A DNA stretch of 59,911 bases from a virus (lineage: Duplodnaviria > Caudoviricetes). The notes beneath the pieces were generated by a model, which saw nothing but the letters and a program-made list of their open reading frames with translations, searched no databases and had not been told where the DNA came from. The stretch spans positions 1 through 59,911 of the IMG/VR virus record IMGVR_UViG_3300040971_000369. One strand, given 5' to 3'. Shown here one piece after another: positions 12,148 through 31,885 of the stretch (position 1 is the first letter of the stretch; the number at the start of each line of letters is the position of its first letter). A program made the position numbers and the translations under genes.

Positions 12148-12151
12148 GGTT

Positions 12152-13087: not shown

Positions 13088-13162
13088 GGTTGAGGTAGGG
13101 TCTAACAAGTAATTATAAAGTTTTATGGCATGACGACCTCTTTATCCATTTTAATTAATATT

Positions 13163-13429: not shown

Positions 13430-13451
13430 TTTAATTCCCTTAGTAATTTAT

Positions 13452-14024: not shown

Positions 14025-14046
14025 GCGGCAACTCCTTGCTAGAAAG

Positions 14047-14127
14047 TCCTAACAAGTTTTAATATTTTATCCCACTTACAGATAAGTGGCCTAACGAAGA
14101 CAGGTCCGCTTGAGCGAGATGTTAGGC
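14047..14127 (-). other. attC site, degenerate on its right arm
   Basis: GCCTAACATCTCGCTCAAGCGGACCTGTCTTCGTTAGGCCACTTA...GTTAGGA. R'' GCCTAAC is the exact complement of the GTTAGGC core that opens this cassette (14569-14575). Confidence 0.75.
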
Positions 14128-14153
14128 TGCGGCGACTGTATTGCTCTTGTAGC

Positions 14154-14525: not shown

Positions 14526-14568
14526 GTGTTGACTCCCAGCTTTGGATAGATCGAATACGAATTGTACG

Positions 14569-14631
14569 GCCTAACGCCCAAGGGTTGGAAACGCGTAGCG
14601 TAGTCATTCCCGTTGCTTGTAATTATTAGGT
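14569..14631 (-). other. attC site following a truncated cassette ORF remnant
   Basis: ACCTAAT...GACTACGCTACGCG...GGCGTTAGGC; an ORF remnant (...GIKQNPINADE*) stops at its start. Confidence 0.6.
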
Positions 14632-15096
14632 TACTCATCCGCGTTAATTGGATTTTGCTTAATTCCAAAGTAGGCAATTACGACGAAGTCAGCAATAATA
14701 TGACAAAAAGGCGAGGGCCAGATATCGATCTTGAATTTAGGTCTTCCACCTTTTTAATACCAGTACCCTAGCCAACAAAATCATGTTTACTGATACATGA
14801 ATGATTACGGTTCTGGCAAGAATTTCTCCTGTCATACGTTCACATTAAGCCATAAACAACAAAGGCCACTCGATATCAGACGGCCTTGTTTATGGCTCCG
14901 TGAAGGAGCGCAGACTTCAGAAGAATAAACCTCACAGCGGAGGCCACAACTGAAAAGAGATTTCAGCCTTTCGACCGAAATCCCTTATCTTGTTTGGCGG
15001 TGCCGTTGGGGATCCGAACCATTCCGCGAATGTCGCCTCGATGTTCTCCATGTTCATGCTGACACCGTATAGGCCGCCCTAGGCAAAAGTGAGGGA

Positions 15097-15261
15097 CTAC
15101 ATCGGCAACCACCCCGCCGCGGCCATGGACAGGCAGACTGGTAAGAGCACGGCTGCAAACAGGATCATGCGCTTGCGCGACTTGCGTGCGCATTCCTTGC
15201 AATGACGTTGAACGTCGTTCATCAAATTCAATCCACATTTCGGACATGCAAGTATTGTCAT
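15097..15261 (-). CDS. 54-aa zinc-ribbon + TM microprotein (not in the ORF track)
   Basis: MTILACPKCGLNLMNDVQRHCKECARKSRKRMILFAAVLLPVCLSMAAAGWLPM; AAGGGGG SD. Confidence 0.55.
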   Translation of the reverse strand: MTILACPKCGLNLMNDVQRHCKECARKSRKRMILFAAVLLPVCLSMAAAGWLPM

Positions 15262-15679
15262 ACAGCCCCCTTTTTTTGGGGATCTTTAGCAAATCTGGAC
15301 GATCCTTAGAATGGGTAGTCATTTAAGCACAAGAAACGCCAGGAATACGTTGTGATACGCATACGGGGTGTTCTTGTCGTTTGATACGCGAAACAGGCCA
15401 CCGCCAAAAAATCCATCATTCTACTCCATGCCCACGACAAAGATCGCGCTTCTCAGTTAGCCAAAAAATTTTCAGGATCTTCAAAATTTCTTGTGTCTTA
15501 CAGCAGCTATACGCTATGGCACGTAAAATTTGTTGCGGGCGAGCAGCGCCCACATCGCTTTTGGAGACCATAAGCTCAGTCATTGAAAGGTGGTTCCAAG
15601 CATATTAAAAACTGCAGTTAAGTTGTTGCCTTAATCACAAAAATCGGAATGATAAATTGTATTGTGATTCACTTAATCT

Positions 15680-16756
15680 ATGGAAATACAACACCGCTAC
15701 GCCATCGACCACGAAGAACAACTCATAGATGTTCATAATTTAGATCGCGCATCTGTCCCAGCAGGTACGATATTCAAATGCGTTGGGTGCGGCGGAGATC
15801 AAGTTGCATGCCTTGGTGCTGTTAGACAAAAGCATTTCAAACATAAAATCAATACTCTCAGTTGTTCTGAAGAAACATACTTGCATCAACTTGCAAAACG
15901 AGTTTTTTATTCTGAGTATACAAAATGTCTTGAAACAAAAAAACCATTTCATTTAGTTCGTTTAGAAAAAAGCATTTGTGATCATTATGAGCAGCAATAT
16001 GGTTTTACTTGTTCTAATAAAGATCTTGTTTATCATGATTTAACGAAATATTTTAATAATATATTTCTTGAAAAATATCATAGTGGCTTTGTTGCTGATG
16101 TCCTTTTACAATCGGATAAATACGGAATTCTTTTTGTTGAATTTGCCGTTACCCATAAATGCGAGAAAGAAAAAAGGAACAGTGGAATACGTATTCTTGA
16201 ATACTCCTTAACTGAAGAAAGGGACATAGAACCAATTAAGTCTCACTTAATTCGCGCTAATGATTTTAATATCAACTTGTATAATTTTAAATCACAAATA
16301 GTTAGAAAATCAATATGTAATGGAAAATGTCATGCAGCAATAATAAATGTTTTTATTGTTTCAAAAAATAAAAAAGCTATACTGAACGAAATGGAACCCA
16401 GTCCAGACTTAAAGAGTCAAATACGAGGAAACCCGGCTTATGTTGAAATTTTAGGTTTAAAAAAAGGGGAAAAAAAAGACCAGACATTGCTTTTTATGCA
16501 GAAAGTGCGTGAAGCACACTTCAAAAATATTCCTATCAGAAACTGTTATATCTGTAAGTACCATGGGATCGATGGCGTAGATAACGCTGTATTTTGTAAG
16601 ATTAAAAAAACCAGTACTCCATCAAACTATGCTGTCGACTGTAGCAAATATTGTCCGATGAACAGTTTAGAGGAGTGCTTGGCTTTAGATGTTAAGAATG
16701 AAGAATCTGCAAAAAAATTTAAATATCACACTATGATTCGTCGGCGGTATTCGTGA
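15680..16756 (+). CDS. CoiA-like Zn-finger + PD-(D/E)XK nuclease
   Basis: CVGC...HFKH...EETYLHQLAK N-terminus; ADVLL...VEFAVTH catalytic-like motif. Confidence 0.7.
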   Translation: MEIQHRYAIDHEEQLIDVHNLDRASVPAGTIFKCVGCGGDQVACLGAVRQKHFKHKINTLSCSEETYLHQLAKRVFYSEYTKCLETKKPFHLVRLEKSICDHYEQQYGFTCSNKDLVYHDLTKYFNNIFLEKYHSGFVADVLLQSDKYGILFVEFAVTHKCEKEKRNSGIRILEYSLTEERDIEPIKSHLIRANDFNINLYNFKSQIVRKSICNGKCHAAIINVFIVSKNKKAILNEMEPSPDLKSQIRGNPAYVEILGLKKGEKKDQTLLFMQKVREAHFKNIPIRNCYICKYHGIDGVDNAVFCKIKKTSTPSNYAVDCSKYCPMNSLEECLALDVKNEESAKKFKYHTMIRRRYS

Positions 16757-16928
16757 CAACATAATCATGACTCCTCTGAGCGACGCATCGTGGCCCTAAA
16801 TTGCGCAAAAAAATACTTCATCAATAACTACATGTGAGCCATCTATCTAGTATATTCAAAGCAGTTTAATGATATATGTCTTATCGATCTGCAAATTTTT
16901 GCTAAAAATTACACCACGCGGAGGCAGC

Positions 16929-17423
16929 ATGTTTAGAACAACTTGTTCTATTTTTTTATTTCTCATTTTAGGGGTATTTAGTGCAGGATGCTCAACAAAA
17001 GTTGTTTACAACACGCAGATGCCAGAAAATTATGTAAAGAATTCTAAAATCGAAAAATACGATATTCAATACAACGACGGTGTTTTGGCCTCTAGAAAAT
17101 TAATTAGTCAAATTAATTTTCAATTAAAAGAAAAAATTGAGAAAATGAATGTAGATAATTACAGTCAAAAAATCAGCATTACAGTTCATGTGTCAGAGGT
17201 TAAAATCGCCAGAGTAGGATCAACTCTTATGCTTGGAGCATTTGTTGGCAACAACGAGCTAAATGGGTTCATAGTTGTTCATGATTATGAAACCAATAAG
17301 ATTATAAGTAGCTACGCAATCGAAGTGGACAAAAACTATGGCGGATATTCCGCATTTTTTGATCTTGAGGAAAAGATGGCGGAAGAGTTTGCTGATCAGA
17401 TTCTAAAACAAATCAATTCTTAG
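16929..17423 (+). CDS. Putative lipoprotein (DUF4410-like)
   Basis: GGAGG SD; signal peptide with lipobox FSAGC. Confidence 0.65.
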   Translation: MFRTTCSIFLFLILGVFSAGCSTKVVYNTQMPENYVKNSKIEKYDIQYNDGVLASRKLISQINFQLKEKIEKMNVDNYSQKISITVHVSEVKIARVGSTLMLGAFVGNNELNGFIVVHDYETNKIISSYAIEVDKNYGGYSAFFDLEEKMAEEFADQILKQINS

Positions 17424-17675
17424 GATCAGAAATTAGTTAGCCAGTATATATCAGCCTTCGATCTCAAGTGCGTACTGCGCGTAGTCTTAAAATGTCGCTT
17501 TGTTGTCGCTAACAACGACCGTGGCATCCTCGCGCGTACGCGCGTAAGCGTATTGGTTTGTTAGAAAGACGGAAGCTATGTATTCACCCGAAAAGATGAC
17601 TCATTATTGAGGCGCACACGTCACTAATCAAGATTATATATTCTGTCTAAAATTTTCAAATGCTATGAGCTTATC

Positions 17676-18314
17676 GTGACTAACATTGTGGATCTTTTAC
17701 GGCGGTCGCATGAGATGTCTGCCGAATTGGAAATCTTTCTTAATCTTCCAGTTTATAACGACTCTGCGCGAATCATATCGAGCCGCGTACTTTGTGGTGT
17801 TTCATTCGAACATTCTGAAAGTGTACGCCTACTCATCGGCACGGGTAATTTTACTTCTTCACTTGGTGTACTCCGAATGCAATATGAATCTTTTGCTAAA
17901 GCAGTTTGGGCTCTTTATGCAGCATCAGACAACATGATTAGTAAACTAGAATGTGAATTGACTTATGAAACTGAAAAGTGGGCGGACAAGGTTCCTCTGT
18001 TGAACGGAATACTCAAGGAACTTGAAGATAAAGCGCCACCTCAAGTAACTGACCAATTACTTGAGTTTAAAGAATACTCATGGAAGCCCCTCAGTTCATA
18101 TATTCATGGAGGCATACACGCCATTAATCGGCATGCCAAAGGCTATCCAACGGAACTCCTCGCTCAGGCGGCTAGATCTTCAAACGGACTACTCGTAATG
18201 ACTGGCATGATGCTTGTTGTTCTGTCTGGTGATAGTCGGCAGCAGGGAAAAATACCGGATATTCAACGTAGATTCGCTGACTGTTGTCCAAAACTGAATC
18301 CAGATAAAACTTAA
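17676..18314 (+). CDS. Hypothetical helical protein (DUF6988-like), possibly cassette-derived
   Basis: FEHSESVRLL...LRMQYE...RAVW-like helix...SSYIHGG; preceded by GCTAAC...GTTAGAA (17508-17566). Confidence 0.6.
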   Translation: MTNIVDLLRRSHEMSAELEIFLNLPVYNDSARIISSRVLCGVSFEHSESVRLLIGTGNFTSSLGVLRMQYESFAKAVWALYAASDNMISKLECELTYETEKWADKVPLLNGILKELEDKAPPQVTDQLLEFKEYSWKPLSSYIHGGIHAINRHAKGYPTELLAQAARSSNGLLVMTGMMLVVLSGDSRQQGKIPDIQRRFADCCPKLNPDKT

Positions 18315-18350
18315 CTCAAATAATACAGCAAACACAGTGGTGAACATTTC

Positions 18351-19577
18351 ATGGAATTAAAATTCAATGAATTATTGACGAAATCTGGATACAACATCTC
18401 TAATGTTCGCTTAGTTCGCCATAAAGACAATAGTGCATTTGAAGGCAGAACACCTTTTGAGCTATGGATGAATGATCGCCCAAAATTTGATTTATATCAG
18501 TCAGTTCAGCGAATTGAAAATCGAACGAAACTCAAAGCCAAATACTGGGCATCATTTTTGGGAACTCCGAATGGGCAAACCGTTTTTATAGGAATGTATC
18601 ATGTAAACTATAAAGGGCTTTTGAAGAACGATACCCCTAAACCACAAAATGACGGCATTGATCTGGCGGGAAGCTGTGATGAATATGAACTGACACTTCA
18701 AGACAATCTGAAAGAGTATATCGGAAAACTAATAATTGATTGGGGGCCTGGCGCAAAAGCTTGGATTCAAAGAGCTGACAAGCTGGACAAGGACGTGGTT
18801 GAAATACTGTCTGACGTTGTTGATATAGACGAACCTTTAATCAAAAATATTATTCGTAATCCAAAGTGGTCACGTGACGAGTTGATCTTGGCGCTTGATC
18901 TATATTTCAAAGTAAACCCATCGCATATATCAAAAAATCATCCGGCAATTATAGAACTCAGCGAAATCCTGAATTCGCTACCCATTCATCCCCATGCTGG
19001 TCATGGCGATAAGTTTCGCAATCCGAATGGGGTTTATATGAAATTGTGTAATTTTCTCAGATTTGATCCGGAATACAAAGGAAGTGGGCTTACAAGAGGT
19101 GGAAAGCTAGAGGAAATAATATGGAATGATTTTGCGAATGATATACATGGACTACAAAAGACTGCCAATTCAATCAAATTGGCTATTAATGCTGTGCCCC
19201 CGCCGAGCGACGATGAAGAAGCGGCGATTGATGAAGATGAAGAATTTATAGAAGGGCGTTTACTGACTCAGCTCCACAAACGGCGTGAACGAAACCCCCG
19301 CTTGGTGAAAAAGAAAAAAGCGAAGGTTCTTAAAGAAAAAGGGAACCTTGCTTGTGAGGTCTGTGGCTTTGATTTTCACATTTCCTATGGCGAACTTGGA
19401 CGAGGATTTGCAGAATGTCACCACAATTTATTACCGATATCCGGCTTAACACAAGCAACAGCAACAAAGCTTTCTGATCTGGCCATTGTTTGTGCGAATT
19501 GCCATAGAATGCTCCATCGTGTCAGACCTTGGAAAAGTGTTGAGCAGTTGAAAGATGTTTACATGTTCATTGGTTAA
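18351..19577 (+). CDS. HNH endonuclease (McrA-like, candidate type IV restriction) with an extra N-terminal domain
   Basis: RNPKWSRDELILALDLY domain; CEVCGFDF...ECHH...CANCHRMLH. Confidence 0.85.
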   Translation: MELKFNELLTKSGYNISNVRLVRHKDNSAFEGRTPFELWMNDRPKFDLYQSVQRIENRTKLKAKYWASFLGTPNGQTVFIGMYHVNYKGLLKNDTPKPQNDGIDLAGSCDEYELTLQDNLKEYIGKLIIDWGPGAKAWIQRADKLDKDVVEILSDVVDIDEPLIKNIIRNPKWSRDELILALDLYFKVNPSHISKNHPAIIELSEILNSLPIHPHAGHGDKFRNPNGVYMKLCNFLRFDPEYKGSGLTRGGKLEEIIWNDFANDIHGLQKTANSIKLAINAVPPPSDDEEAAIDEDEEFIEGRLLTQLHKRRERNPRLVKKKKAKVLKEKGNLACEVCGFDFHISYGELGRGFAECHHNLLPISGLTQATATKLSDLAIVCANCHRMLHRVRPWKSVEQLKDVYMFIG

Positions 19578-19725
19578 GGATGATAAATACATGCCTTGCG
19601 TTGACGTTTTTTGTCCTAAATCGCAATATAACGATATGATTAAAGACAACCAGGCCAATCAGAATCGGATGGCCTAGTTGTTTTGCAATATCTCGTAATC
19701 TAGAGTTTCGGAGATATTCTTGATA

Positions 19726-21312
19726 TTAGCACGACAGTGCCATTTCAAGTTTTTTTAATAAGACAGTCGCAATTACTATTCTTATTCTTAACTTATTTTT
19801 TTCAATACCAGGCATTTTCTTGCGCAAATGAATGTCATATTTTGAAAATTGCGAAGCAGGAAAGAATGACTCTAATAAATTACTTAAGTGGTGAATTGAA
19901 TCTGGATACTCTTTATTGTCATGTATATACTTGTGCAATTCATGGGCGTTTTCAAATTTTAAATTTTCAAATTCTATAATTAATTCATTAAATTTTGACA
20001 ATAACATATTGTTATCATCAAGATTTTTAATAGACTCTTGCGCCATTATCATTGCGTCATTCAAAGTATAATGTAGAATTTTATGATCATTTTTCCCCTC
20101 ACCAAGATGCAAACATGATCTCCAAATTGTTTCTGGATAATTACTGCTTACAATTTCAATCCTCGTACCTCTGACTTCCTTATGAGGAATTCTGATGATT
20201 CTGCTAGATGAATAATTTGTTTTGCGAATTGATCTTTTTCTTGCTTGCGGCGGGTCAAATGTTGCTACATTATTAATAATAAACGGACAGCATTGTTCAT
20301 TTGTCTCTGCGAGCATTATTCCATTTGCAATATGCCAAGTAAGTATCGGAGGTACAGCATTTCCAGCTTGTTTATATCTTGAGTTTACAGTTTTCCCTCC
20401 AAATTGAAAATTTATAGGAAATGTTTGCAACGTTGCGCACTCTCTGATTGTTGCTCTTCTATAATTTATGTTTTTAGACTTAATAACAAGAGTTTCTCTT
20501 CCCATTTGCAGAGAAACAACTGTTCTTGCTGGTTTATCTAAATCGTCTGGAAAATCCATTTTTCCCATATACGGATGATTTTGTTTCACCTGCGCTATCT
20601 GTCTCGCCTCTTGATCTGTAATAACTGTATCCATGAAATGATCAGTTAGTTCTGTCTCTAATATTTCTATCGAATAATTTGGATCTTTCACCACTTTTGA
20701 TTGAGGAACTCCCAATGGGTCTGGAAATGAATTTATAATTTCACCAAGTGTTTTTGCAGATTTCGCAAAGTTTTTTAATAAAGAAGATTTATAGGATTTT
20801 GCGTGTGTCGGTTCAGCTATTGGGTATTTTCCAATTAGCAGACGCTTACGTTTTTGAGGAGCACCGTATAATGAAATATCAAATTCTTTTTTATTCGGAA
20901 TATCTAAAAATCCTTCTCTGTCTATACCTATCCATTTTAATGGAATTCGTTCTGGTAAGTGGAGACCTATTCTTGGAACATTTTCCATAATCCAATATTT
21001 TGGTTTTTTTATATATACTATTTTTAAAAAAAATTGAACTAGCTTTAGCCCATCTAAAACATTTGCGCGAGATCCTTTTGATGTTGAAAAATTAACACAT
21101 GGAGGACCGCCAACAATAATATCGCTGCTTGGTATAGAATCTATTTCTACATTCTCTATATTACTACAACATATTTTAGCAGTAGGAAAGTTACGTTCGA
21201 AAGTTTCGATTGAATCTTTGTTATTATCGAGTCCATAGATAATTTTAAATCCAGCCATTTGAAAACCAAGACTAATGCCGCCGCAACCACAAAATAAATC
21301 GATAACAGTCAA
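19726..21312 (-). CDS. DNA (cytosine-5)-methyltransferase
   Basis: DLFCGCGG (motif I), GGPPC (IV), MENV (VI), QKRKR (VIII), ECATLQTFP (IX), QAGNAVP (X). TTG start with AGGGGA SD. Confidence 0.95.
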   Translation of the reverse strand: MTVIDLFCGCGGISLGFQMAGFKIIYGLDNNKDSIETFERNFPTAKICCSNIENVEIDSIPSSDIIVGGPPCVNFSTSKGSRANVLDGLKLVQFFLKIVYIKKPKYWIMENVPRIGLHLPERIPLKWIGIDREGFLDIPNKKEFDISLYGAPQKRKRLLIGKYPIAEPTHAKSYKSSLLKNFAKSAKTLGEIINSFPDPLGVPQSKVVKDPNYSIEILETELTDHFMDTVITDQEARQIAQVKQNHPYMGKMDFPDDLDKPARTVVSLQMGRETLVIKSKNINYRRATIRECATLQTFPINFQFGGKTVNSRYKQAGNAVPPILTWHIANGIMLAETNEQCCPFIINNVATFDPPQARKRSIRKTNYSSSRIIRIPHKEVRGTRIEIVSSNYPETIWRSCLHLGEGKNDHKILHYTLNDAMIMAQESIKNLDDNNMLLSKFNELIIEFENLKFENAHELHKYIHDNKEYPDSIHHLSNLLESFFPASQFSKYDIHLRKKMPGIEKNKLRIRIVIATVLLKKLEMALSC

Positions 21313-21329
21313 TTTTAAATCCCCTTGTC

Positions 21330-21339
21330 GACTATAGTC
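21330..21339. promoter_or_regulatory. C-box-like palindrome GACTATAGTC upstream of the methyltransferase
   Basis: Resembles GACT-N-AGTC controller-protein sites; lies between the divergent M and C-R genes. Confidence 0.55.
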
Positions 21340-21411
21340 CGTTGAAATCCATGCCCAGACATGATGACTAAAGGCAACATTTAGCAGTGTCAACATGCAA
21401 GGACTTCGAAT

Positions 21412-21618
21412 ATGACAGAAATTGGTAAAGTTATCCGGAAACATCGGAAAAATCTCGATTTGAGCCAGTCTCAATTAGCAGATTTGTCTGGACTTGATCG
21501 TACATATATTTCTTTGCTCGAATGCGACAAAAAAAGTCCAACTGTCGAAACACTCGCCAAAATCTCGCAAGCGTTAAGTGTCAAGTTGTCAGAAATATTG
21601 TCTGAGGCTGGCCTATGA
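21412..21618 (+). CDS. R-M controller (C) protein, XRE HTH
   Basis: LSQSQLADLSGLDRTYISLLE..KKSPTVETL; overlaps the REase start (ATGA). Confidence 0.9.
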   Translation: MTEIGKVIRKHRKNLDLSQSQLADLSGLDRTYISLLECDKKSPTVETLAKISQALSVKLSEILSEAGL

Positions 21619-22493
21619 TTCTCTACTGGAAAGATGAAGAGATAAAAGATATTGGGACAATTCCAACTGTATGCGACACTGTTACTCAAGCTCTAAAACA
21701 TGAAATAGAGCAATCGTTTTCAATTTTTTTAGATAATCCATTTATTATCAATGACACAGCATGGTTTGAGTATACAGAAGGGAAAATAAAACCTAGAGTT
21801 ACAAACTGCGCAGAATATATTTCAAAAAAATTTCAAAAAGGCTTGGAACATTTTGAATGGTTCAGTGATTATAAATTAAAAAATCAAGAAATTGATGGCT
21901 ATAAAGAATTTATTTTTCCAAATATTACAGTCCATACAATCTCTGAAGCAAATCTCCGTAACTTACTACTAGCCATGCCATTTGATGAGAATTTCAAGAA
22001 AGCTATTAGTCTATTATATTCATGTAATTTTGAGAAACAAAAATATTTAGCTCCAGCAGGATTCGATCTGCAATTATTTGATCAATCACAAATCTTAACA
22101 CCTATACGTGTCGGACTGGAGTTTGAGACAGGTAATATTGCAAGTTCATTCCGCGCGCTGTCAAAATTGAATTTTCTTTTTGAAGAAAATCAAATCGATC
22201 TTGGTATATTTATTACATCAGATTCAAAAAAAGTTTCTACAAGGATTTGGCCTTCTTCTAACAGAAATGGAAGTCTACAAGAGTTAAGGCAACGAATGTT
22301 TTTAAAAGATGTACGATTGCCAATTTTAATCTGTGGTTTCGCGCCAGATGGTTGGGATATGAAATCATCATATTTAGGAAATAAAGAGCGATACCAAATT
22401 GAAACAGATCGAGAAGAAATTTTAAATTTACAAAATGGCCAATCAATAAAGATGGCTTATTCTTCTCAAAAAAAATTATATAAAAAATTGTAA
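21615..22493 (+). CDS. Type II restriction endonuclease, BamHI-family-like
   Basis: VGLEFETGNIASSFRALSKL resembles BamHI EFETGNISSAHRSMNKL; upstream EIDG and downstream RNGSLQEL. Confidence 0.75.
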   Translation: MILYWKDEEIKDIGTIPTVCDTVTQALKHEIEQSFSIFLDNPFIINDTAWFEYTEGKIKPRVTNCAEYISKKFQKGLEHFEWFSDYKLKNQEIDGYKEFIFPNITVHTISEANLRNLLLAMPFDENFKKAISLLYSCNFEKQKYLAPAGFDLQLFDQSQILTPIRVGLEFETGNIASSFRALSKLNFLFEENQIDLGIFITSDSKKVSTRIWPSSNRNGSLQELRQRMFLKDVRLPILICGFAPDGWDMKSSYLGNKERYQIETDREEILNLQNGQSIKMAYSSQKKLYKKL

Positions 22494-22882: not shown

Positions 22883-25800
22883 CTATCCAGCCTTGCGATA
22901 TTTTTCGACAAATGTACGCTTCAGCTTTTCGATATTCTCATCAAGGGTGTCAACGCTCGTGGAGCGTTTGTTTTTGTCCAGCACATAGGCCTCCTGCAGG
23001 CGTTTGCCCGTGTCGAACTGTCCCAGCGCCTCACGTACCCGCGAGTACGCCGGATACAGCCGCAGCAGCTTCTCGTTGTCGCGGCGGAATGTTCTGGCCT
23101 CTTTTATGTCATCGGCGCGCTCTTTGCGCAGGGCCGCGGCGGCCGCCGGGTCTTCTTTGTCCAGGGCCAGCAGCGCGGCCCGCAGCTCGCCCAGCTCGCG
23201 GGCGCGCTTGACCACGCGGTTCAGTTCCAGTGCCGCCGCCTCGTATTCCTTGCCCAGCACGTCGGGCTTGCGGGCCGCGCTCATGTGCGCGCCTGCTGAA
23301 GCAAGAAGCGCGGTCAGGCCGTCTTCCTCTCCCTGCAGGTACTTGAGCAGATAGCCCACCTGAATGGGCTGCAGATCGCGCAGCTGTGCCGTCAGGATGG
23401 ACGGCAGGGCGCTGAAGAACAGTTCCTTGGGTTCGTACCGCGTATTTTTGACCGTCCGGCCTGTGGTGGCCAATTCCTTCACGCCCGTGAACGGCCGCTC
23501 GCGGTAGTCGGTCTTGGTGCCCAAAGCGCCCACGATCCGCATCAGCGGCGAGAGCTTGCCCTTGATCAGACTTGCAGGGTCCAAGATGCGCAGGAAGTCG
23601 GCGAAATGCCCAATCACGGAAAACACCTTGCGTTCACCCTTGGGCAGATCCATGCCAAGCCGCTCGTAGATCGGCGTCACGTCCACGCCCGTCCACTTCA
23701 TGCGCCGCAGCGTGTCCCAGTCTGCAAACTGATCCCTGTAGAGATCATACCAATGGTCGTCGTCATCACCAAGCAGGGCCGACACCAGCACCTGCAGGGC
23801 CAGCGTGTGCAGCGCCCCGACCACGATGATCCGCGCCCAGAAGCGTCGATACACCTTGTCCATGCCGGGAGGCGCGGGCACCTCGTGCATCATCCGCGCG
23901 ACGGCGTCGTTCAGCCCGGGCACCATGCCCGTGATCGTGCGCCAGTTCGATTCGGTCCAGTCCGGAGCGAGCAGCAGGAGCCGCAGCCCCGCCTGCACGC
24001 CGGGATGCCTGCCCATGCGCGCCAGGTGCAGACCGCCAAAATCGTCATTGACCAGACGCGCCACCCGCTCGGCCACCAGATCCGGATTGGGCACCCGCCC
24101 TTCCCGGTTCGCTTCGCGGATCTCGGCATCGAGCTGATGCCCATATTCCAGCACGGCGGCCTCGGCCTTGAGCCCGGCAAAATAGCGTTTGAAGAGCGCG
24201 TTGGCCGCCCGTTCGCGGAAGAACCGCCCGCCCCGCACGGCCGCAACGACCTTTTCCGCACCCGGCATGCGGCCGGACAGGTGCGTAAACAGCCGGTCCG
24301 TGATGCCGCGATGCTCAGACGCCGCGCCCTCGGACCAATCAGCCAGTTCGCCCACGGTCAGCCCGTGCCTGATGAGCTGGCGCAGCACGGCGTGATTGGT
24401 CCGGATCTTCTCCAGGCCACGCTTGTGGGCCGATACGGGGTTGATGGCGCTGGCCATTTTCTGCACGGCCCCGGACACGTCGCCCTTGCGCAGCGCTTCC
24501 AGCGCGCCCTGGTTCACGCCAAAGGCCCACGAGCGCGCGCCGGCCAGATGGTGGAAAAAGCTGGTCATCAGAATCCAGCCCTTGGCCGCGTTGTTGAAGG
24601 CCAGAATGGCACGCGGCAAGGGGGCCTTCCACGGGCTGTCCCCGTCCATGGCGCGGGTCATCCTGTTGATGAGGTCCGCCACCTTTTCCGGCGCGTACAG
24701 CGGCACCTTCTCGAAAATATCCACCTCCTGCCGGAACTCCACCCACGCGCCGGGGCTGCCCTGCTCGCGTAGCTCCTCGGCGTAGGCTCGGGCGTCGCGC
24801 TCGTTGTCAAACAGCGTGTCGGCCCGGCGCGCGCCCTTGTCAGCATACACGGCCCAATACCTGTTCGGCACAGACACGTACATCTTGCGACCCTGGCCGT
24901 CGGTACCCAGGAGCCCATACATGTCGCGCATGCGGATCTTGACCCCGGCCTTGCGCACCCAGACATGAAAACCCTTGCCCTGCAGCTCGACGTAGCCCTT
25001 CTGGGCCCGGGCCGACAGCACGCCCTGGGCGCGGCCTTCCTGGATGAACTGCTTGCCCGCCACGATTTGGCCGATCTCTCCGGCAATGGCCGCCCAGCTG
25101 GACGTGATGCCCTTGATCTGCAGGTCATAGCCCTTCATCCAGCCGTCGAAGATGGTTTCGAGCGTGCGGGCCTTGCTTGCCGTGGTGAAGGTCTTGAAGG
25201 CGTGGCCGGCGCCGGAGAAGACGGCCTTGTCGCCATCCTGCGGGCGGTTCCACAGGCGGCGCACGTAGTTGTCCAGCAGCGTGTTGACCACGCCCGCGTT
25301 TTTGGCCTGGGCGCCCACGGTCTCGAAAGCGCTGTTCATGGTTTCGTCCACGAAGTGCTTCTGCTCAATCGTCAGGTTCTCGGCCGCCTCCAGGATACGG
25401 AGCTGATCTTGAATGCGCAGCAGCGCAGCGCCCTTGATCTTTTTGACTTCAAGCTGCTCGCGGGCCCAGTCTTTGAACTCCTGAACCTTGGCGGGGTTGA
25501 TCTGCATTTCCCGATGCACGAGCATGGCCGCGTCCAGCAGGCGGGAGCGGGAGGAATCCTTGAGCTCTTTTTCTGAGGAGAAGACATTTAGGGGGTTGTA
25601 TTTCCACTTTTTGGAGTTTGCCAGGCGCTGCACGGCGCGCTGCATTTCCGTGGCGGCCACCTTTACCTGGTGTTGCACCTGGTCGCGGCCCTCGTGGATC
25701 TTATTGGCGAAGGTGCGGTTTGCCTCCAGTTCGGCCGCGATCTGCTCAGGCGTCATGGGCGTGGCCATGCCGGCCACGGTCTGGGATACTTGGGTAGCGA

Positions 25801-28800
25801 CGCGGAAAAAACGGGTATTGTCACCCTCGCCGAAGGTTTCTAATGATTCGTCCGAAGAACCGCTTTGGCCCGAGATTGCGCTAGGGGTCGCCGAAAGGCG
25901 ATGATTGGTCGGTGCCCTTTCCCAAAGCGGTTCCTTCAAAGCTCCGGTATCTGCGCCAGTTTGCATCCCCGCTTCGGCGGCATCTGCCCTGGTCTTGAAC
26001 GCAGATTCCCGGGGCTTTGTTTTTTTCCCGCCCCGGCTGAACCGAATGTCGTCGTTTGCGGCGTCAAAGCTTCCGGCGTTTCCTGTGACGGACTTCACCT
26101 GCTCCGGGTAAAATGCCACCAACTCAATCGTGCCGTCGGGAAAATCCAGCACCACGCCGTCAAAGCCCTGGTCTTTGAGGCGCTGCGTCCAGCGTGCTAT
26201 AGTCCCCTTGCTCAATCTTCTGAGCTTCTGCTTTCTCTTTAAGTTTGCGAAATAGGGGTTTCGGACAGCGACATACAGGGGCATCACCGCTTGGTTTTTG
26301 AACCTACCTTTCAGGTTCGCGTACGTTTCGGCGATGCGGACGTCGCTTATGAGGTACACCCCCCGGCCCAGCCAGCCGTTGTCCTTTCTGTTCGGATGGT
26401 CCAGGTCGAAGGCGTCTATGGCTTCTGCCGTTCCGTGAAAAAATACTCTGGGTCGTCCCCGGTCATCGAGGCCAACTTCTCTTCCTCTTCGTCCGTCAGC
26501 GGAATCAAATCCACCACCGCGTCGATTTCCTCCTGAGTATGCGCCTGCATCAGCTTTTCCAGCCACTCTTCCTCGTTGAAATCCATCGAACCACCTCCAA
26601 AAATTAACAATCCCGGCCGCACTTCCATGGATGGGCCTGCCCTCGCTGTTTACGGCCGGCCGCTCGATTCCGTCAATACTGATACTTTTTCGGCCTCTCC
26701 CCCGGGACAAGTACGTATTGTCATCCTCATCGGTCGCGCTTATGTTCCCTTCAGAACTGCTTTGGCCCGAGAACGCGTCAGGGGTTGCCGCAAGGCGATG
26801 ATTGGTCTGCGCCCTTTCCCAAAGCAGTTTTTTCTTTTGACGCCCGCCCAGCTCGTTCACAAAATACTCAAGACGCATTGGGCTGGCGGAAACCACTCTC
26901 CAGAAATTTCCGGCCGGATCGAACTCCATCTTGACTGTCGCAGTTTTCCACGTTTTCACACCACGCACCACCAGCAGCACAGAACGCGCGTGCCCCTGAT
27001 ACGCCGCGTCAAAGTTCTCGACGACATGCATCACGAAGTCACGCACGGAAGAAAAGCCCATCCGCTCAATCTCCCTTTGGTGCCGCTCGATGATATGAGT
27101 CATGTCTCCAGGCCCCAGCCGGATCGGCCCGGCCTGCCATCCTATGGCGGCGGCGATCTCCTCAGTGATCATGCCTATGTCCGCCGGGTTCCGGCTCATC
27201 TTCGCCCCGCCCCCATCCACGGCCCGGACCCCCTTGCCCTCAACCGTAGCCCGACGCGCCCGTACGATCAGATCCAGGACATCCGCATCGGTCATTTTCA
27301 GGCCCGGAAACACCCGGCGCAGCGCACGGCGCACTGCGGCCACAAACCTATCCAGCGCCCGGGCGCGAACGCCCGTTTCCGCCCAGTGCGCCAGCACCTC
27401 CTCCACGGCCTCGCGGCGCTGGTCCAGGTTGGACAGATCCAGTTTGTAACCGCTGGCGATCTCCCCGGCCGCATCGCGGACCTTGGCGTTCTCCCAGGCC
27501 AGATCCAGGGCGCGGTTCAGTTCCGCCTTGCGCATGATCAGCCGCAAGCCATGGTGCCCGGTTCCCTCGTGCAGCAGTGTGCGCCGCACGTGGTCCACGT
27601 CGGCCATGCGGTCGGCGATGATGTACACGGTACCGTTGTGATAAACGGCCTGCACGTCACCCTCGGCCCCGGCCTTGCGTACCGCGCCCAGGATCTTCGC
27701 GGGCAGATCCCGCACGGACTGCACCACATTCACCACCGGAGCCTTGGCCCAATTCCCGGCCACGGTGTCCACCACGCCTTGCACGTCGGCCGCGGGCATG
27801 CCCTTGGCAGTGGGTCTGTCGGCGCGGGAGAAAAACACGTCCACATAGCCGTGCACATCGTAACCATTGCCCCGGAACGACTGTAAATTCCCTGCCGCAT
27901 CCTGGTACAGCACATCCAGCACGCGCACGTTCGCGGCCCGCGCCAGGGCCGCAACATTGTGCCACGCCTTCGTATCGAAAATGCCGGGGATTATACCCAG
28001 AACGCCGTTGGCATTGGCGCGGTGCAGGGCCTTCAAGATATTTCCCAGCCCGTTCCCGCGCAGTGTGGCCATATCCTGCGGCGACATGGGCACAAAACCC
28101 ACCACGACATTCTGTGTATTGAGCAGCACTATGCCGGAGTCCGCGCCGCCGGTGATTGTCTTGCTATGCTCAATGAGCACATCCGGATCGCTCAGCCGGA
28201 TAACGCGCTCGGGTTCGTACACGCCGGAGAAAACGCGCACCTGCACAGGAACGCGCTTACCCTTCCCGTTGGATACTGGGATCGGGATATTGCCACCCAG
28301 TTCATTGGCAAAGCTGTTTGACGTGACCGCGAGCATACCCAGCATTTCCACGCCGCTACCCGTGAACAGGTCTCGAAAGACGTTGGCAAGAACCATGTCG
28401 GCATCTGGGGAAAGCTCGGCTTTTTCGCCTGGATGGTTGTGCGCCAGATAGACGTACCTGGCCCCGGGCACATCGAGCACGGAGCCAGCCAGAATCGAAG
28501 ATTCGGCCACGGTTGAGGAGGTAGCTCCCTTGGAGTGGTGAAGAATCACCAGGGGCTTGTTTTTGGCGTCCAGCACCAGGGCAACCATGTTTTCCTGGGG
28601 CTGTTCGGCCAGACTCGCCACGGCGACAGCCGCGTCAAGATCGGACTCTATTCTTGCGGGGACTTCTTGCTCTCCAGCTGTTTTAAGCAGGACCGAACGT
28701 ACTCCTGGGAGGCGTCCAGCGCTTCCTGGCTCGGCTCCGGAATCAGAATCCGCTCCTCGCCTTCCGGATATGTCACCTTCACGCTCGTTTTCCGGCTCGG

Positions 28801-31800
28801 ATTCGGCAAGGGTTCTTTCTTTTCCATATTCACCTCCATTTTGCCCGGCCCTGACAGTTTCGGACGCAACGCCGACAGCCGCGTCAAGATCTGATCCTAT
28901 TTTTTCGGAGACTTCTTGCTTTCCAGTTGTTTCAAGCAGGACCGAACGGACTCCTGGAAGACTTTCCACTCTTGCGGCGCTGGAATCAGGCCACTCTTTG
29001 CCCACCTCGCGCAGGGTATTGGGCTTTTGGGCCGGGTCGTGCGGCGGGGCGTTGGCCTGCTCCGTGTCCGATTCGGCGCGCTGGTCAAAGACTTCCTTGC
29101 CTTCGCGGTAATCCTGGCGCTCCTGCAGGCGGCGCAGGATCTCGTCTATCTCCGTGCGTGCATCGTCCACGGCGCGGCTGTAATCCTGCTCGATGGCCTT
29201 TTTGGACTGCACGCGGTCGCGCAGCAGGTCCATCAGGTTCTGAACCTCGCGGTCGATTGCCAGTTCCGGAACCTCAGCGCTCAACATGTCCGCCAGCTCG
29301 TCCAGCATGGCCCCGTCTCTGGACACGAAACCCAGTCCAAACCTGGACTGCATCCACTGGATTCCGTCCCGGCCCATCTGCTCCCGGGCATGGTCGTAAT
29401 TGATCCCGCCCAGCTTGCGGATGCGTGAAATCACGCGCTCATGGATGTCCAGGGCATGATCCCGCACTTCGGCATGCATGCTCATTTCATAAGCCAGATC
29501 AGCCAGGCGCGTCTCGCTCTCATCACGTTCGGCCTGCTCGATGAGCCCGGCTTCTTCCTCCGTCAACGCACCGGCATCAACCAGGTGCCGCGTTACGTTG
29601 TCGGCATAGTCCAGCGCTTCGGCTATTCGAGATTGATCCTCGACAAAAGATCCTGCCTGAAGGCTTCCCCCTTGTCCTTGGTCATCCTGTTGAACAGTCC
29701 CCGCTTGAACGTCGCCGACCGGCCCACCGTGGTCTTGTTGAAAGCCCTGGCCAGCCTGTCCAACGTCTTCTCCGCCCGCTCCGCTTTGTCCTCGGTCATC
29801 CATCCCCTCCTGCTTGTGCTGCCCTGCCACTTCCCCAAACGAAACTGCCTGATCGAAAATCGAAACATGCCCGGGAGGCGCAGCCCCTTCACCGCCACCA
29901 AACCCGCCTCCCTGATCGTTCACGGGCTCCGCTGGCTGCCGCTCCATCCAATACCGCCCCTTGTACCGCGCCAGCACCTCGGGCGGCACAGGCAAGCCCT
30001 GCTCCAGGGCCTCGCGCACATGGCGCTCGTGCGTGTTCATCCTGGACTTGGGGCCGTCGGGCTTGGCTTCCAGGTACTCGTCCTGAGTCATCTGCCAGGG
30101 GGCCTTGGCAGGTTCCGACAGATCGACGGCAGGCTGTAAACTTTCCATGGCCGCGCCGCTGGTTAAGGAAACGGCGTTTTCGTTTCCTTGCGCAAGGGGC
30201 GGAGCCGCCCCGGGTTCCGCCGGGGCAGACATCATGCCCTGCAGCTCTTCGGGCGTAAATGGGGTGTTCGGCGCCTGTTGCGCTACTGGCGCTACAGGCT
30301 GCGCCCCATCCGGGACGAATTCACCACCCACGGGAACAGCCGCCTCGGCTGCAACGCGCTGAGACTCCTTGAACGCGGCGTCACCCTCGGGGGTGCCCAG
30401 GATGGCCGGGTTGATCTCGTTTGCCTCGTCCACCACGGGGACATCGTTCATCTGCCCCAACGTATCGGCCAGATCGTCCACGCGGTCCGCGACCGTGGGC
30501 GCTGCGGCCCCTGCAGGCGCGGAAGGCGCGGCGGGCGGCGGTGTTGCCGGATCGGTCGGGGAGAGATTCAGCAGATCCACTTCCCGGCCCTGGTCCAGGG
30601 CATCGGCTGCGGCCTGCGTGTGGGCCGGGTCCGGAGCGGCGGCTTGTGTTTTGGACGGGTCCGGAGCGGCGGTTTGTGTTTTGGACGGGTCCGGAGCGGC
30701 GGTTTGCGTGTGGGCCGGGTCCGGAGCCGGGTCATTTTTGTCACGCGGCTTGGACATGGGCGACGAAAGAACATGTCCACCAGCGCCAACCATGAATGTT
30801 CCGGGAATAACAGCGGCCTCCTCGCGTGCGCCCTTGGCCACGGCCTGAACCACACTTTGCGGCTCCGCCTCGGTCCGCGCGATGCCAAGGCCCGAACGCG
30901 CGTCCTCGACCAGGCCGTTCCTTATCCATGGGAGCTTACCGGCCGTCTCGGCTATGGCCTGCACCGGACCTTCAAGCCATTCAGTCAGTGCCTCCTTGCC
31001 ACCCGTGAGGAGGATCTTGGCCCCGCGCTTGGCCAGCCCGTCCACCACTTCCTTACTCAAAATGCCATCCAGACCAACCTTGTTCAGCCAGATCGAGGTC
31101 AACCCGTATCCGGTCGAGCGCCCCAATGCCTCCGTGGGTGCCACGCCTTTCTTCAGCTGATCGGCCAGCATGCCGCCACCTTCCATGAGTCCGCCGACAA
31201 CACCGCCGGCCGTGGACGCCATGGATACCGGGACAGACATGGCTGCGGCAATGACCGGGAGCATGGACCCGGCCGCGTCCGCGCCACCTTCGAGCATGTA
31301 GCCGGGGTTCAGGAGCAGGGATGGATCATCGAGAAAGTCCTTACCCTTGCGGTATTGCGGCACGCGATCATCGGCGAATTTGCGACCCGAAGCCCAATCA
31401 GCATGAGCACTCTTGCCTTGGCCGATAAGCCAGTCCCCGCCCCGGCGCATGGCCTCAGTCAAAGGGTCGGACTCGCCGTGCGCCGTGTCGGCGAAATCGG
31501 CCATGGCGTGCAGGCCTGCGCCAGGAATGTCATAAAACAGGTTGGCGCTGAAATCGCCCAGGGCCGCGCCGGTCCTGATGGCGGACCGCACTGGCCATGC
31601 CGCGTCGGAAGACAGGACGCCGGGCTCGACTTCGGTTGACGCTGCTTTCAGCGCGGCAGCATCCTCCGCCGTAAACGGCGCTGTCTCAAACGGGTCAAAA
31701 TCCACCTGTTCGAGCGCGTATTGTTTGTTTTGCTGGCTTGCGGCGGCATCATCCGCAAACGGGTCGAAATCCACCAGTTCCAACACAGCGTCAGGCTGCT

Positions 31801-31885
31801 CCTCCTCCCAGTCCGATAGAGCCGTTTCCCCCCTTCGCGCATCCTGAAAAGGGTCGAAATCCACCCGTTCGAGAACAACCGTCAT
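22883..31885 (-). CDS. Large polyvalent virion/ejection protein (3000 aa): tandem JAB/RadC, zincin metallopeptidase (MPTase), PBECR-like nuclease, ART (ADP-ribosyltransferase)-like domain, helical C-terminus
   Basis: AHNHPG...SPDAD (JAB); [10 protein letters not shown]...EEVLA (MPTase); HIIERH...WRVVSA (PBECR-like); FHGT...GRGVYL...GFDGVV...EQVKS...N.GSFD (ART-PolyVal); AGGAG SD. Confidence 0.9.
25818..25937 (+). ncRNA. Putative antisense structured small RNA, copy 2, with promoter
   Basis: TTGTCA-N17-TAATGAT; stem GAACCGCTTTGG/CCAAAGCGGTTC; internal TCGCC-GAAA-GGCGA. Confidence 0.55.
26416..26586 (-). CDS. Nested +1-frame acidic 56-aa ORF inside the ART-domain coding region
   Basis: GGAGGT-N6-ATG; [56 protein letters not shown]. 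Confidence 0.65.
   Translation of the reverse strand: MDFNEEEWLEKLMQAHTQEEIDAVVDLIPLTDEEEEKLASMTGDDPEYFFTERQKP
26718..26838 (+). ncRNA. Putative antisense structured small RNA, copy 1, with promoter and U-tract
   Basis: TTGTCA-N17-TATGTT; stem AGAACTGCTTTGG/CCAAAGCAGTTTT; internal TTGCC-GCAA-GGCGA; followed by a T-run. Confidence 0.65.
28612..28961. repeat. Imperfect ~100-bp direct duplication (28612-28712 and 28861-28961; offset 249)
   Basis: LPGVRSVLL[E/K]T[T/A]G[K/E]QEV...SDLDAAV occurs twice in the polyvalent protein. Confidence 0.9.
28648..28827 (-). CDS. Nested +1-frame 59-aa ORF immediately before the JAB domain
   Basis: GGAGGTGAAT-ATG; [59 protein letters not shown]; synonymous-substitution pattern in the duplicate copy. 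Confidence 0.65.
   Translation of the reverse strand: MEKKEPLPNPSRKTSVKVTYPEGEERILIPEPSQEALDASQEYVRSCLKQLESKKSPQE
29623..29799 (-). CDS. Nested +1-frame basic 58-aa ORF
   Basis: AGGAGG-N6-ATG; [58 protein letters not shown]. Confidence 0.55.
   Translation of the reverse strand: MTEDKAERAEKTLDRLARAFNKTTVGRSATFKRGLFNRMTKDKGEAFRQDLLSRINLE
30608..30727. repeat. 30-bp tandem repeat x4 ([20 protein letters not shown])
   Basis: GGGTCCGGAGCGGCGG... repeated every 30 nt. Confidence 0.9.

Follow-up and report, generated by a model that had tools for sequence, protein, structure and literature searches.

The locus described here raises the question of whether three short open reading frames, lying out of frame within one giant phage gene, are genes in their own right and, if so, what their products would do for the effector domains at whose boundaries they sit. 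A sequence-only reading had taken them for domain-specific inhibitors or regulators, forming a toxin–immunity array hidden within one coding sequence (CDS). The window, that is the whole stretch of DNA analysed (59,911 nucleotides, record IMGVR_UViG_3300040971_000369), is a provirus, with a GC content of 60–65%. The landmarks of the host gene are the following:

22883..31885, minus strand: polyvalent protein gene, 3000 codons, main frame open throughout
28316..28621, minus strand: RadC-like JAB domain, main frame, residues 1089–1190 (Pfam RadC)
26066..26467, minus strand: ART-PolyVal ADP-ribosyltransferase domain, main frame, residues 1807–1940 (Pfam)
26753..26834, minus strand: D3 repeat, upstream copy, flank of the ART module
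25856..25937, minus strand: D3 repeat, downstream copy (linker LWERAxTNHRL...), flank of the ART module

The gene joins unrelated effector domains, RadC and ART-PolyVal, in one 3000-aa polypeptide, and codons 636–1835 have 2665 homologues at E ≤ 1e-3, mostly proteins of 2000–5500 aa. Polyvalent proteins of phages and conjugative elements are described as multi-domain proteins encoded near virion genes, with RadC and ART of the H-Y-D type among their domains (Iyer et al. 2017, PMC5512222), and the present gene resembles them in its multi-domain build, in its RadC and H-Y-D type ART, and in the virion genes adjoining it. The nested genes are a feature found here, whereas none appears to be described in the main text of that paper, where ‘overlapping’ occurs 0 times and ‘frame’ once.

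As the sequence-only reading had it, the three nested ORFs, of 58, 59 and 56 aa, lie on the strand of the host gene, in the +1 frame of the 3000-aa ORF 31885..22883:

29623..29799, minus strand: nested ORF1, +1, 58 aa, basic, ending at the onset of a conserved main-frame helical domain
29806..29811, minus strand: AGGAGG Shine–Dalgarno (SD) sequence of ORF1, 6 nt before the ATG
28648..28827, minus strand: nested ORF2, +1, 59 aa, beginning in the 140 nt of unique sequence that separate the D2 repeats and ending in D2 copy B
28833..28837, minus strand: GGAGG of ORF2, 5 nt before the ATG
26416..26586, minus strand: nested ORF3, +1, 56 aa, acidic, with helices at 5–14, 18–25 and 32–42, member of a conserved small-protein family
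26594..26598, minus strand: GGAGG of ORF3, 7 nt before the ATG, made by the W-R-W codons (TGG AGG TGG) of a main-frame motif

Each is thus a same-strand overprinted ORF, wholly inside the CDS, in another frame, with its own start and ribosome-binding site, and the strong SD claimed for each ATG is present as a GGAGG at 6, 5 and 7 nt, respectively. The whole gene contains 143 ATGs and 18 GGAGG; four off-frame ATGs have a GGAGG 4–10 nt upstream, and three of these four belong to ORF1–ORF3. When synonymous codons were permuted with the main protein unchanged (1000 shuffles), at least three such ORFs (GGAGG plus ATG, at least 50 aa) arose by chance with P = 0.012. Length by itself is not special in this gene, which holds 13 +1 ATG ORFs of at least 40 aa, the 10 besides ORF1–ORF3 reading as junk.

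It had also been claimed that the main frame turns into filler over each nested ORF while the nested frame reads like a normal protein, and this view is upheld by base composition and codon usage. The main-frame GC3 drops over each ORF from about 0.73–0.9 to 0.28–0.58. With a codon table trained on 15 other ORFs of the same phage, the +1 frame outscores the main frame at only three places in the whole 9 kb (29920–29566, 29011–28576 and 26713–26350). The per-codon scores of ORF1, ORF2 and ORF3 are −3.87, −3.88 and −3.79 in the nested frame versus −4.18, −4.35 and −4.49 in the main frame; the in-frame score of real genes is −3.77 ± 0.12 and their off-frame score about −4.5, so that the nested frames score like real genes and the main frame there like off-frame sequence. 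The corresponding codon log-likelihood ratios (LLR) are +17.9, +27.5 and +39.3. Among the 15 training ORFs, such +1 switches occur in only 3, at 5′ ends where the listed start overlaps a neighbouring gene, and are absent from the remaining 12. That the frames are merely open by chance, in GC-rich DNA over low-complexity spacers, is scarcely credible. The GC content, the 13 +1 ORFs and the fact that G-initial main codons give G-ending +1 codons, a coding look-alike, speak for it; the codon switch, the shuffle result and, as described below, the nested-silent bias of ORF1, the profile matches of ORF3 and the conservation specific to the nested frame speak against it, and for ORF3 a chance origin is very unlikely.

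Substitutions provide a separate view of ORF1, which is preceded by the following feature:

29800..29943, minus strand: variable stretch upstream of ORF1, non-coding-like in all three frames, main frame open

Comparison with P0002, a 92% identical protein, gives 10 main-frame changes in 59 residues over ORF1 versus 4 in 177 downstream (Fisher P = 2e-4), and none in 35 residues over the upstream stretch. Seven or eight of the 10 changes in the ORF1 region leave the nested protein unaltered, against an expected share of 0.26–0.35 (P = 0.0006–0.025). This test uses the P0002 protein and not its DNA; changes silent in the main frame, nearly all of which would alter the nested protein, are therefore invisible to it. 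In a contig of run X6, the upstream stretch is swapped for 235 other letters (the 93-nt difference being a multiple of three), and homology breaks exactly at the ATG of ORF1. The RNA fold of the stretch showed nothing unusual (z = +1.26), and database searches found no ORF1 homologues beyond near-identical relatives. The substitution pattern suggests that ORF1 is likely to be a selected coding gene.

ORF2 lies within a duplication of the lead-in to the RadC/JAB domain, which is single in homologues; the two copies are 109-nt direct repeats:

28865..28973, minus strand: D2 repeat copy A, a second RadC lead-in in which the 3′ half of ORF2 recurs in +1 with no start codon
28616..28724, minus strand: D2 repeat copy B, the true main-frame lead-in to the RadC/JAB domain

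At 28933–28909, 4 of 4 differences between the two copies are silent in +1 and alter the main frame, a comparison of internal repeats with four differences only. Database searches found no ORF2 homologues beyond near-identical relatives, and support for this ORF is intrinsic only, consisting of codon usage and the start signal; whether it is a selected coding gene stands evenly balanced.

ORF3 is associated with a recognizable site in the host gene, defined by two features:

26582..26605, minus strand: junction motif NFWRWFDG, conserved in the main frame, the ORF3 ATG straddling its D-G codons (GAT GGA)
26477..26581, minus strand: insert of ~34 codons, G/R/D-rich filler in the main frame, missing from the canonical junction

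The spacing from NFWRWF to the ART is 45 aa here versus 11 aa in 17 of 27 junctions (151 proteins), and the insert is missing in L001 and L002. ORF3 had been placed inside the ART domain; since it spans codons 1767–1823 and the Pfam domain codons 1807–1940, it lies mainly before the ART, with only its last 17 codons overlapping. The AGG codon at the GGAGG site is common to 4 of 4 Nitrosospira loci, all four of which also have homologous +1 peptides after the same NFWRWF[ND]G motif.

The alignment of homologues proposed with the sequence-only reading gave for ORF3 a small-protein family, unnamed and without a Pfam entry, represented by 41 clusters of ‘hypothetical’ proteins from free-standing gene calls and matched in 8 of 190 Nitrosomonadaceae genomes. 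A family profile built without ORF3 matches it at E = 9.1e-13 over the full length and at 1.3e-11 over the N-terminal 29 columns, the next-best of 1231 six-frame segments of the window in the full-length search being at E = 3.5. ORF3 fits the N-terminal motif of the family, M-x-[FYL]-[DN]-x-x-x-W-x-x-[KR]-[LM]-x-x-A-x-T-x-E-E-[IF]-x-A-[LV]-[IV]-x-x-[LI]-P, and sits where the family sits, in +1 immediately downstream of NFW[RE]W[FH][ND]G and upstream of the ART motif G.PR.[FY][FY]HGT. For one and the same 84-nt segment, E is 7.2e-9 with the nested-frame profile and 0.59 with the main-frame profile; of the three nested codon positions, the second has the smallest number of nucleotide differences within the family (366 vs 446 and 497), and several members have main-frame stops with the nested frame intact. 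P0186, 93% identical to ORF3, has the same start and stop, and its near-invariant W8 is replaced by L. Filler inserts of the intact proteins P0136 (3282 aa) and P0054 (3532 aa) can encode the family in +1, with 0 of 300 shuffles as good in each case (z = 3.7 and 6.7; window control, 5.7), in a test starting from protein sequence alone; in P0145 the insert fails to match the family, with 152 of 300 shuffles as good. By their sequence, the P0054 and P0136 members probably share the same junction position. The nested frame of ORF3 appears to be under purifying selection, and ORF3 is very probably a selected coding gene.

These data also bear on the idea that the ORFs are relics, namely captured small genes or shifted coding segments that retain an old codon signature although translation has ceased, which we regard as quite improbable. 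A codon signature alone cannot separate present from recent coding, no RNA run was found to contain the stretch, ORF1 and ORF2 are orphans, and P0186 carries W8L; however, ATG, GGAGG and stop are retained in divergent ORF3 family members (21–48% identity), conservation is specific to the nested frame, ORF1 substitutions are biased to nested-silent ones, and the main-frame GC3 shows no drift towards the high value of the genome.

Wherever the context of an ORF3 family member can be recognized, the member follows the NFWRWF junction and precedes the start of an ART, always of one subfamily, so that the claim that the microgene travels with its effector module is sustained for ORF3; yet ARTs of the same subfamily have a plain 11-aa junction and no nested ORF in L031, L032 and L033. 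The peptide is therefore not obligatory for the ART, 3 of the 4 phage records (cultured or assembled) examined at the junction having the domain without the insert, and it does not always accompany the effector as the partner in a toxin–immunity pair would. In Nitrosomonadaceae, copies sit in decayed prophage or island DNA; the full ART is kept in 0 of 15 loci, with the nested ORF span still kept. Stand-alone copies appear to outlive the loss of the ART in Nitrosomonadaceae; short ORFs outlast gene decay more readily than long ones. Two loci, L013 and L016, encode a free-standing protein of 169–170 aa that begins with the N-terminal module of ORF3 and has no ART; the L016 copy adjoins Zorya-like genes.

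Ribosomes might instead shift to +1 from the main frame, producing truncated polyvalent isoforms that end in the nested sequences and no separate peptides. All three ORFs are in +1, D2 copy A holds a start-less ORF2 tail conserved in +1, and SD-like sequences, which can stimulate frameshifting, might act as the stimulus. Such a mechanism is nevertheless highly improbable: each ORF starts at an ATG of its own, properly spaced from an SD, a main-frame stop or slippery site is not evident, the peptide ORFs of L015 and L016 have no upstream main frame, and gene callers list 41 free-standing family members.

Complex modelling, another check that had been proposed, separates the ORF3–ART pair from its controls, with a score of 0.67 (runs of 0.69, 0.67 and 0.67) versus 0.01 for the best of 3 controls; the score mark is attained by 58 of 80 solved complexes and by 2 of 110 mismatched pairs. 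The partner has a pLDDT of 71 or higher, and the runs agree in no fewer than 60% of their contacts; AF2 gives ORF3 residues 1–30 a pLDDT of 74–84. The modelled interface comprises the family-conserved hydrophobic residues F3, W8, L9, L12, I21, V25 and I28–L30 and, on the ART side:

26168..26254, minus strand: basic helical segment of the ART (P0001 about 1878–1906; chain 1 residues 82–110), modelled against the ORF3 peptide

The ART chain was modelled with no alignment and reaches a pLDDT of only 65–66, and the pairing of an acidic with a basic helix may be favoured by charge alone. The model makes binding of ORF3 to the adjacent ART domain an even prospect; that it neutralizes this domain is a more tentative proposal, an immunity or inhibitor role being plausible.

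The codon-usage islands of other polyvalent ORFs hold 32 ATG ORFs of at least 45 aa, every one of them in +1. Islands containing an ATG ORF are more frequent in polyvalent ORFs (32 in 181,203 codons versus 4 in 59,332 in other ORFs), whereas overall island density is not higher (0.193 versus 0.219 per 1000 codons). In two such island families, the nested frame is better conserved than the main frame in 6 of 6 pairs. Another polyvalent ORF, L094, has an HNH gene hidden out of frame inside it.

It had been stated that no description of this arrangement was known, but a 2025 publication describes HNH endonuclease genes hidden out of frame in insertions that phage genes tolerate in frame, as in ShiLan (PMC11855218). 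As described there, a stop-free insertion in a conserved phage gene adds a loop to the host protein and carries a real gene in another frame; the ORF3 insert likewise occupies one fixed site of a conserved gene in some cases, is missing there in others, and leaves the host frame stop-free. Unlike ShiLan, the peptides here have 56–59 aa, with no homing evident, and a family search found no HNH, other nuclease or mobility domain in any of the three. A hidden homing element of the ShiLan type is rejected on this absence of an endonuclease.

A broader possibility is that the inserts are independent cargo, moron-like or ShiLan-like cassettes in permissive spacers, of which only copies leaving the host frame open survive; the hidden genes would be real, with a role unrelated to the neighbouring domain (e.g. 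anti-defence). This we consider rather unlikely. It draws on the presence or absence of the insert at a precise site of a conserved junction, the location of ORF2 between 109-nt direct repeats, the homology break of run X6 at the ORF1 ATG, the HNH gene in L094, the ART-less proteins of L013 and L016 (the latter beside Zorya-like genes) and the same logic in the published ShiLan element (PMC11855218). On the other side, none of the three peptides has an endonuclease domain or any other function in mobility, the ORF3 family was found nowhere but at the ART junction or in a remnant of it, and the complex model couples ORF3 to that ART.

Own-start genes nested in another frame are familiar from Rz1 inside Rz of phage lambda, and comS in srfA of Bacillus subtilis and gndA in gnd of E. 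coli are described as short own-start genes wholly inside a larger gene, the host of comS being, as here, a giant multi-module gene. The present case differs in that a single gene holds three of them, all on non-conserved inserts at module boundaries, and in that the family of one follows an effector domain which it is predicted to bind. Polymorphic toxin and MuF-toxin systems, as far as they are covered in the cited accounts (Jamet et al. 2017, PMC5576092; Zhang et al. 2012, PMC3482391), share a small partner gene in linkage with an effector module that varies, conserved motifs at the junction ahead of that module, and partner copies left as orphans once the toxin is lost; in contrast, the partner here is contained in the gene of the effector itself, where it precedes and overlaps the module start instead of lying downstream, is missing from some ARTs of the same subfamily, and has a putative neutralizing function.

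The explanation that we favour, and hold to be probable, is that of three real, separately initiated small +1 genes on spacer inserts, the ORF3 product being a predicted guard of the ART. Inserts in inter-domain spacers would carry the overprinted genes, with the main frame passing through them as tolerated filler. Their constant +1 frame may reflect GC-rich coding DNA, in which a stop in the frame one base upstream needs a T at the third position of the real frame; that frame would then stay open, so that both products can coexist. The ORF3 product would be an acidic helical peptide, of a family tied to one ART-PolyVal subfamily, that clamps the basic helical segment of the ART encoded just downstream. 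Its job would most likely be that of a module-linked guard, i.e. an inhibitor or antidote keeping the ADP-ribosyltransferase quiet in the producing cell, a chaperone being less likely; to judge from their positions, the ORF1 product may pair with the helical domain and the ORF2 product with the RadC/JAB domain. If this explanation is true, then, since the main frame reads the inserts as tolerated filler, one mRNA and one CDS would yield a 3000-aa injected protein together with three hidden small peptides at its module boundaries.

This provirus record (59,911 bases) holds in its GC-rich half, which has 60–65% GC and virion-type genes on the minus strand, a large gene whose product is assigned to the polyvalent proteins, in the sense of the main text of Iyer et al. 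2017 (PMC5512222), because it combines RadC/JAB and ART-PolyVal domains and has long homologues. Codons 636–1835 retrieved 2665 homologues at E ≤ 1e-3, mostly 2000–5500 aa, among 1.84 billion representative proteins, and megablast against phages and plasmids returned no close DNA relatives. The three small nested ORFs that the sequence-only reading had described, and proposed as candidate immunity proteins of the adjacent effector domains, are all present in its +1 frame:

31885..22883, minus strand: polyvalent gene, a single ORF of 3000 codons among virion-type genes
Residues 1089-1190 of the polyvalent protein: RadC-like JAB domain (Pfam)
Residues 1807-1940 of the polyvalent protein: ART-PolyVal domain (Pfam)
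29799-29623, +1 frame: ORF1, 58 aa
28827-28648, +1 frame: ORF2, 59 aa
26586-26416, +1 frame: ORF3, 56 aa

Direct repeats of 82 nt with 85% identity (window 25856–25937 and 26753–26834) encode the linker LWERAxTNHRLxATP on either side of the ART module, which by its sequence setting looks like a cassette between recombination-prone repeats. The N-terminal part of the gene (window 30576–30755 and 31681–31877) contains five 30-nt tandem units (PDPxxTQxAA) and a 38-nt unit present three times and encoding VDFDPF. Adjoining the 60–65% GC phage part of the same record, ~18 kb (window 4001–22000) are at 33–47% GC; this part could represent a second island or host DNA with another origin.

ORF1, ORF2 and ORF3 are predicted from sequence to be real nested genes, with certainty decreasing from ORF3 to ORF1 to ORF2. 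Their length is unremarkable, 13 +1 ATG ORFs of at least 40 aa being found in the gene, of which the other ten are R/P/C/W-rich junk. The strong SD sites claimed for them were recovered: GGAGG lies 5–7 nt upstream of all three ATGs, a spacing found for only four off-frame ATGs in the polyvalent gene, three of them those of ORF1–ORF3, and at least three such ORFs would arise by chance with P = 0.012 (1000 synonymous shuffles). The same kind of GGAGG site is used in other genes of this phage. Frames were scored against the codon usage of 15 other ORFs of the phage. Across the whole 9 kb, the +1 frame outscores the main frame solely at the ORF1–ORF3 regions, where the nested per-codon scores (-3.87, -3.88 and -3.79) are at the level of real genes (-3.77 ± 0.12) and those of the main frame (-4.18, -4.35 and -4.49) at the off-frame level. 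Main-frame GC3 over the nested ORFs is down to 0.28–0.58, and this drop and the codon scores uphold the view that the main frame there is low-complexity filler while the nested frame reads as a normal protein. In the control ORFs, a +1 switch is seen only at 5′ ends overlapping a neighbouring gene (3/15 ORFs). A promoter/terminator scan of the gene strand near the nested ORFs gave no signal, and this stretch of the window was not found in any listed RNA run.

The three peptides had no significant match in Pfam and PHROGs, and tblastn against phages and plasmids gave none, or chance matches at E = 0.6; scans of IMG/VR, JGI metagenomes and GTDB with the polyvalent protein of the window, alignment A1 or the peptides produced nothing useful, except the scan with part of P0054, an intact polyvalent protein of 3532 aa. 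This genome scan led to four Nitrosospira loci, in all of which the +1 frame after NFWRWFNG starts with ATG and encodes an ORF3-like peptide. The plain form of this junction, FWRWFGDSKVVDxxGRPLVVYHGT, with 11 residues between its two motifs, occurs in 17 of 27 junctions (151 proteins); the spacing is 41 residues in P0054 and 45 in the window, and because of this difference of 45 versus 11 residues ORF3 is seen to sit on an insert of ~34 codons. Its SD is formed by the W-R-W codons, and its ATG by the D-G codons, of the conserved main-frame motif. The ORF3 family is matched by 41 small ‘hypothetical’ proteins that belong to no Pfam family, one of which (P0186) has the same ends and 93% identity to ORF3. 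A profile of 12 members from which the window was excluded recognizes ORF3 at E = 9.1e-13 (next best 3.5), and the same 84 nt score E = 7.2e-9 with the nested-frame profile versus E = 0.59 with the main-frame profile. The least variable site in the family is nested codon position 2. Of 190 Nitrosomonadaceae genomes, eight gave profile matches; among the 401 genomes of an order-level sample, the only one matched was the seed genome.

Conservation in homologues, checked for ORF3, holds in part: the family is kept in the nested frame, but in some relatives the insert does not fit the family or is absent. The filler inserts of P0054 and of P0136 (another intact polyvalent protein, 3282 aa) have a +1 coding capacity for the family far above that of shuffles (0/300 each). 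All 15 Nitrosomonadaceae loci have a truncated or frame-shifted ART, homology stopping at query residues 108–141 of 236, and the nested ORF is for the most part unbroken there. On the other side, the insert of protein P0145 cannot encode the family in +1, three phage records of the same ART subfamily (two assembled podovirus genomes and Limnohabitans phage DC33) have the plain junction with no nested ORF, and a search of 71 polyvalent loci from IMG/VR did not turn up the family. The 4203-aa polyvalent gene of the cultured Bacillus phage vB_BspP_Dartukuta (MW749009.1, DARTUKUTA_57; locus L030, 206–388) has a ~40-aa filler insert at the same junction (FKNWFGDWEN/ART), and this insert carries a protein-like 60-aa +1 ORF (MNQKEL...), which was rejected as a family member since the likeness is insignificant (E = 0.068).

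For ORF1, the comparison is with P0002, a protein of 345 aa encoded on a JGI contig of 1192 nt, which aligns with the main frame across ORF1 at 92% identity. Differences affect 10 of 59 residues over ORF1, compared with 4 of 177 on the downstream side (P = 2e-4, Fisher test) and 0 of 35 just upstream. By single-base parsimony, seven of these ten changes leave the nested protein unaltered, two produce E7K and K11Q in it, and one is ambiguous; with an expected nested-silent share of 0.26–0.35, P is 0.0006–0.025 in this protein comparison, where main-silent changes are invisible. Metagenome-run contigs ~90% alike span the ORF1 and ORF2 regions with 477 differences and leave 26300–26671 uncovered. 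In run X6, homology ends exactly at the ORF1 ATG, the upstream 142 letters being swapped for 235 others, and the length difference of 93 nt is a multiple of three. The stretch replaced in X6 includes window 29800–29904, whose 35 main-frame residues are identical in P0002 although this part is non-coding-like in every frame. The ORF1 leader RNA gave no structure signal on folding (z = +1.26), and an assignment of ORF1 to DUF4113 was dismissed, its ESM Atlas score of 0.78 being at noise level.

ORF2 starts in a 140-nt unique piece flanked by two 109-nt direct repeats (83% identity), of which copy B is the normal RadC lead-in; homologues have a single such lead-in. Between copies A and B at 28933–28909, all four differences are +1-silent and main-frame-changing, with the opposite in the flanks, a pattern that fits dual coding in a small sample of four differences. 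No ORF2 homologue was found in any collection searched, the ESM Atlas included.

The proposed pairing of peptide and adjacent domain was addressed by structure prediction for ORF3 and ART, and binding is supported as a prediction. AF2 gives ORF3 helices at 5–14, 18–25 and 32–42, with pLDDT 74–84 over residues 1–30. Its complex with ART residues 1797–1960, the ART chain entering without alignment, scores 0.67 versus 0.01 for the best of three controls, a level that 58 of 80 solved complexes attain, compared with 2 of 110 mismatched pairs. The partner has a pLDDT of 71 or more, and the runs have no fewer than 60% of their contacts in common. In the modelled interface, the conserved hydrophobic residues of the family lie on a basic helical ART segment (~residues 1878–1906). 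The model supports ORF3 as a module-linked partner of ART, and a candidate guard role is plausible.

Relatives of P0136 in IMG/VR (71 loci, L034–L104) were also surveyed for nested islands, with ORFs taken stop-to-stop. ORFs of at least 1500 codons total 181,203 interior codons and contain 35 codon-usage islands, all in +1, a placement we infer to reflect the arithmetic of stop codons where coding DNA is GC-rich; 32 of them have an ATG ORF of at least 45 aa, 15 of these with an SD-like site. ORFs of 400–1499 codons gave 13 islands in 59,332 codons, four with such an ATG ORF. Five nested families recur across these loci, their ATGs again arising from main-frame N-G or D-G codons, and for two recurrent families the nested frame beats the main frame in 6/6 pairs. 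One recurrent family has the C-terminal end ...MRRAVxAAIKAMGLP; another, of ~110 aa, ends in EFPQD directly before a conserved NYxFG... module. In locus L094, positions 9201–9798 of a 3508-codon polyvalent ORF encode a 177-aa HNH endonuclease in +1, the main frame being open throughout; this island resembles the ShiLan element published in PMC11855218.

Stand-alone copies also exist in bacterial genomes. A free-standing protein of 169–170 aa headed by an ORF3-type N-terminal module is encoded at L026 6001–6510 (genome G534), adjoining Zorya-like genes (704-aa ORF, MotB/OmpA, EH_Signature), and at L027 5665–6177 (G001), near a DUF4917 gene. The protein matches no Pfam family, and the AF2 model of the 169-aa homologue, at pLDDT 36.8, is too poor to use. 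A decayed prophage with a small terminase and an LPD37 fragment has two further family copies ~390 nt apart (L029 7513–7710 and 7899–8087, G536), a pair that in its layout resembles an orphan array.

The arrangement is a variation on known nested-gene arrangements. For polyvalent genes, no description of it was found among the matches listed, in line with the claim that it was undescribed; nested genes as such are already known, the published ShiLan HNH included. A literature search gave no pertinent paper on polyvalent proteins with overlapping genes, the word ‘overlapping’ is absent from the main text of Iyer et al. 2017 (PMC5512222), and searches on immunity with out-of-frame or embedded genes gave nothing pertinent among the matches listed.

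It seems unlikely, as a general rule, that polyvalent genes routinely bear module-linked +1 spacer guards, so that a module recombines with its own antidote and hosts capture orphan antidotes to blunt effectors. If this were so, the stand-alone Nitrosomonadaceae genes of the ORF3 family (one beside Zorya-like genes) would be captured antidotes, and a hidden toxin–antidote layer in phage–host conflict would have been missed by gene callers. Few weapons of phages and plasmids are as large or as common as polyvalent proteins, whose G/D/R-rich ‘linkers’ are regarded as inert. Should such linkers prove to be the shadow cast by conserved small genes, a phage gene class is being overlooked by annotation pipelines, the low-complexity spacers of GC-rich megagenes become a search ground, and the harmlessness of an injected ADP-ribosyltransferase during production becomes testable (ART with or without the 56-aa peptide). 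Orphan copies carried by bacteria point to a possible route by which hosts may obtain antidotes against phage effectors.
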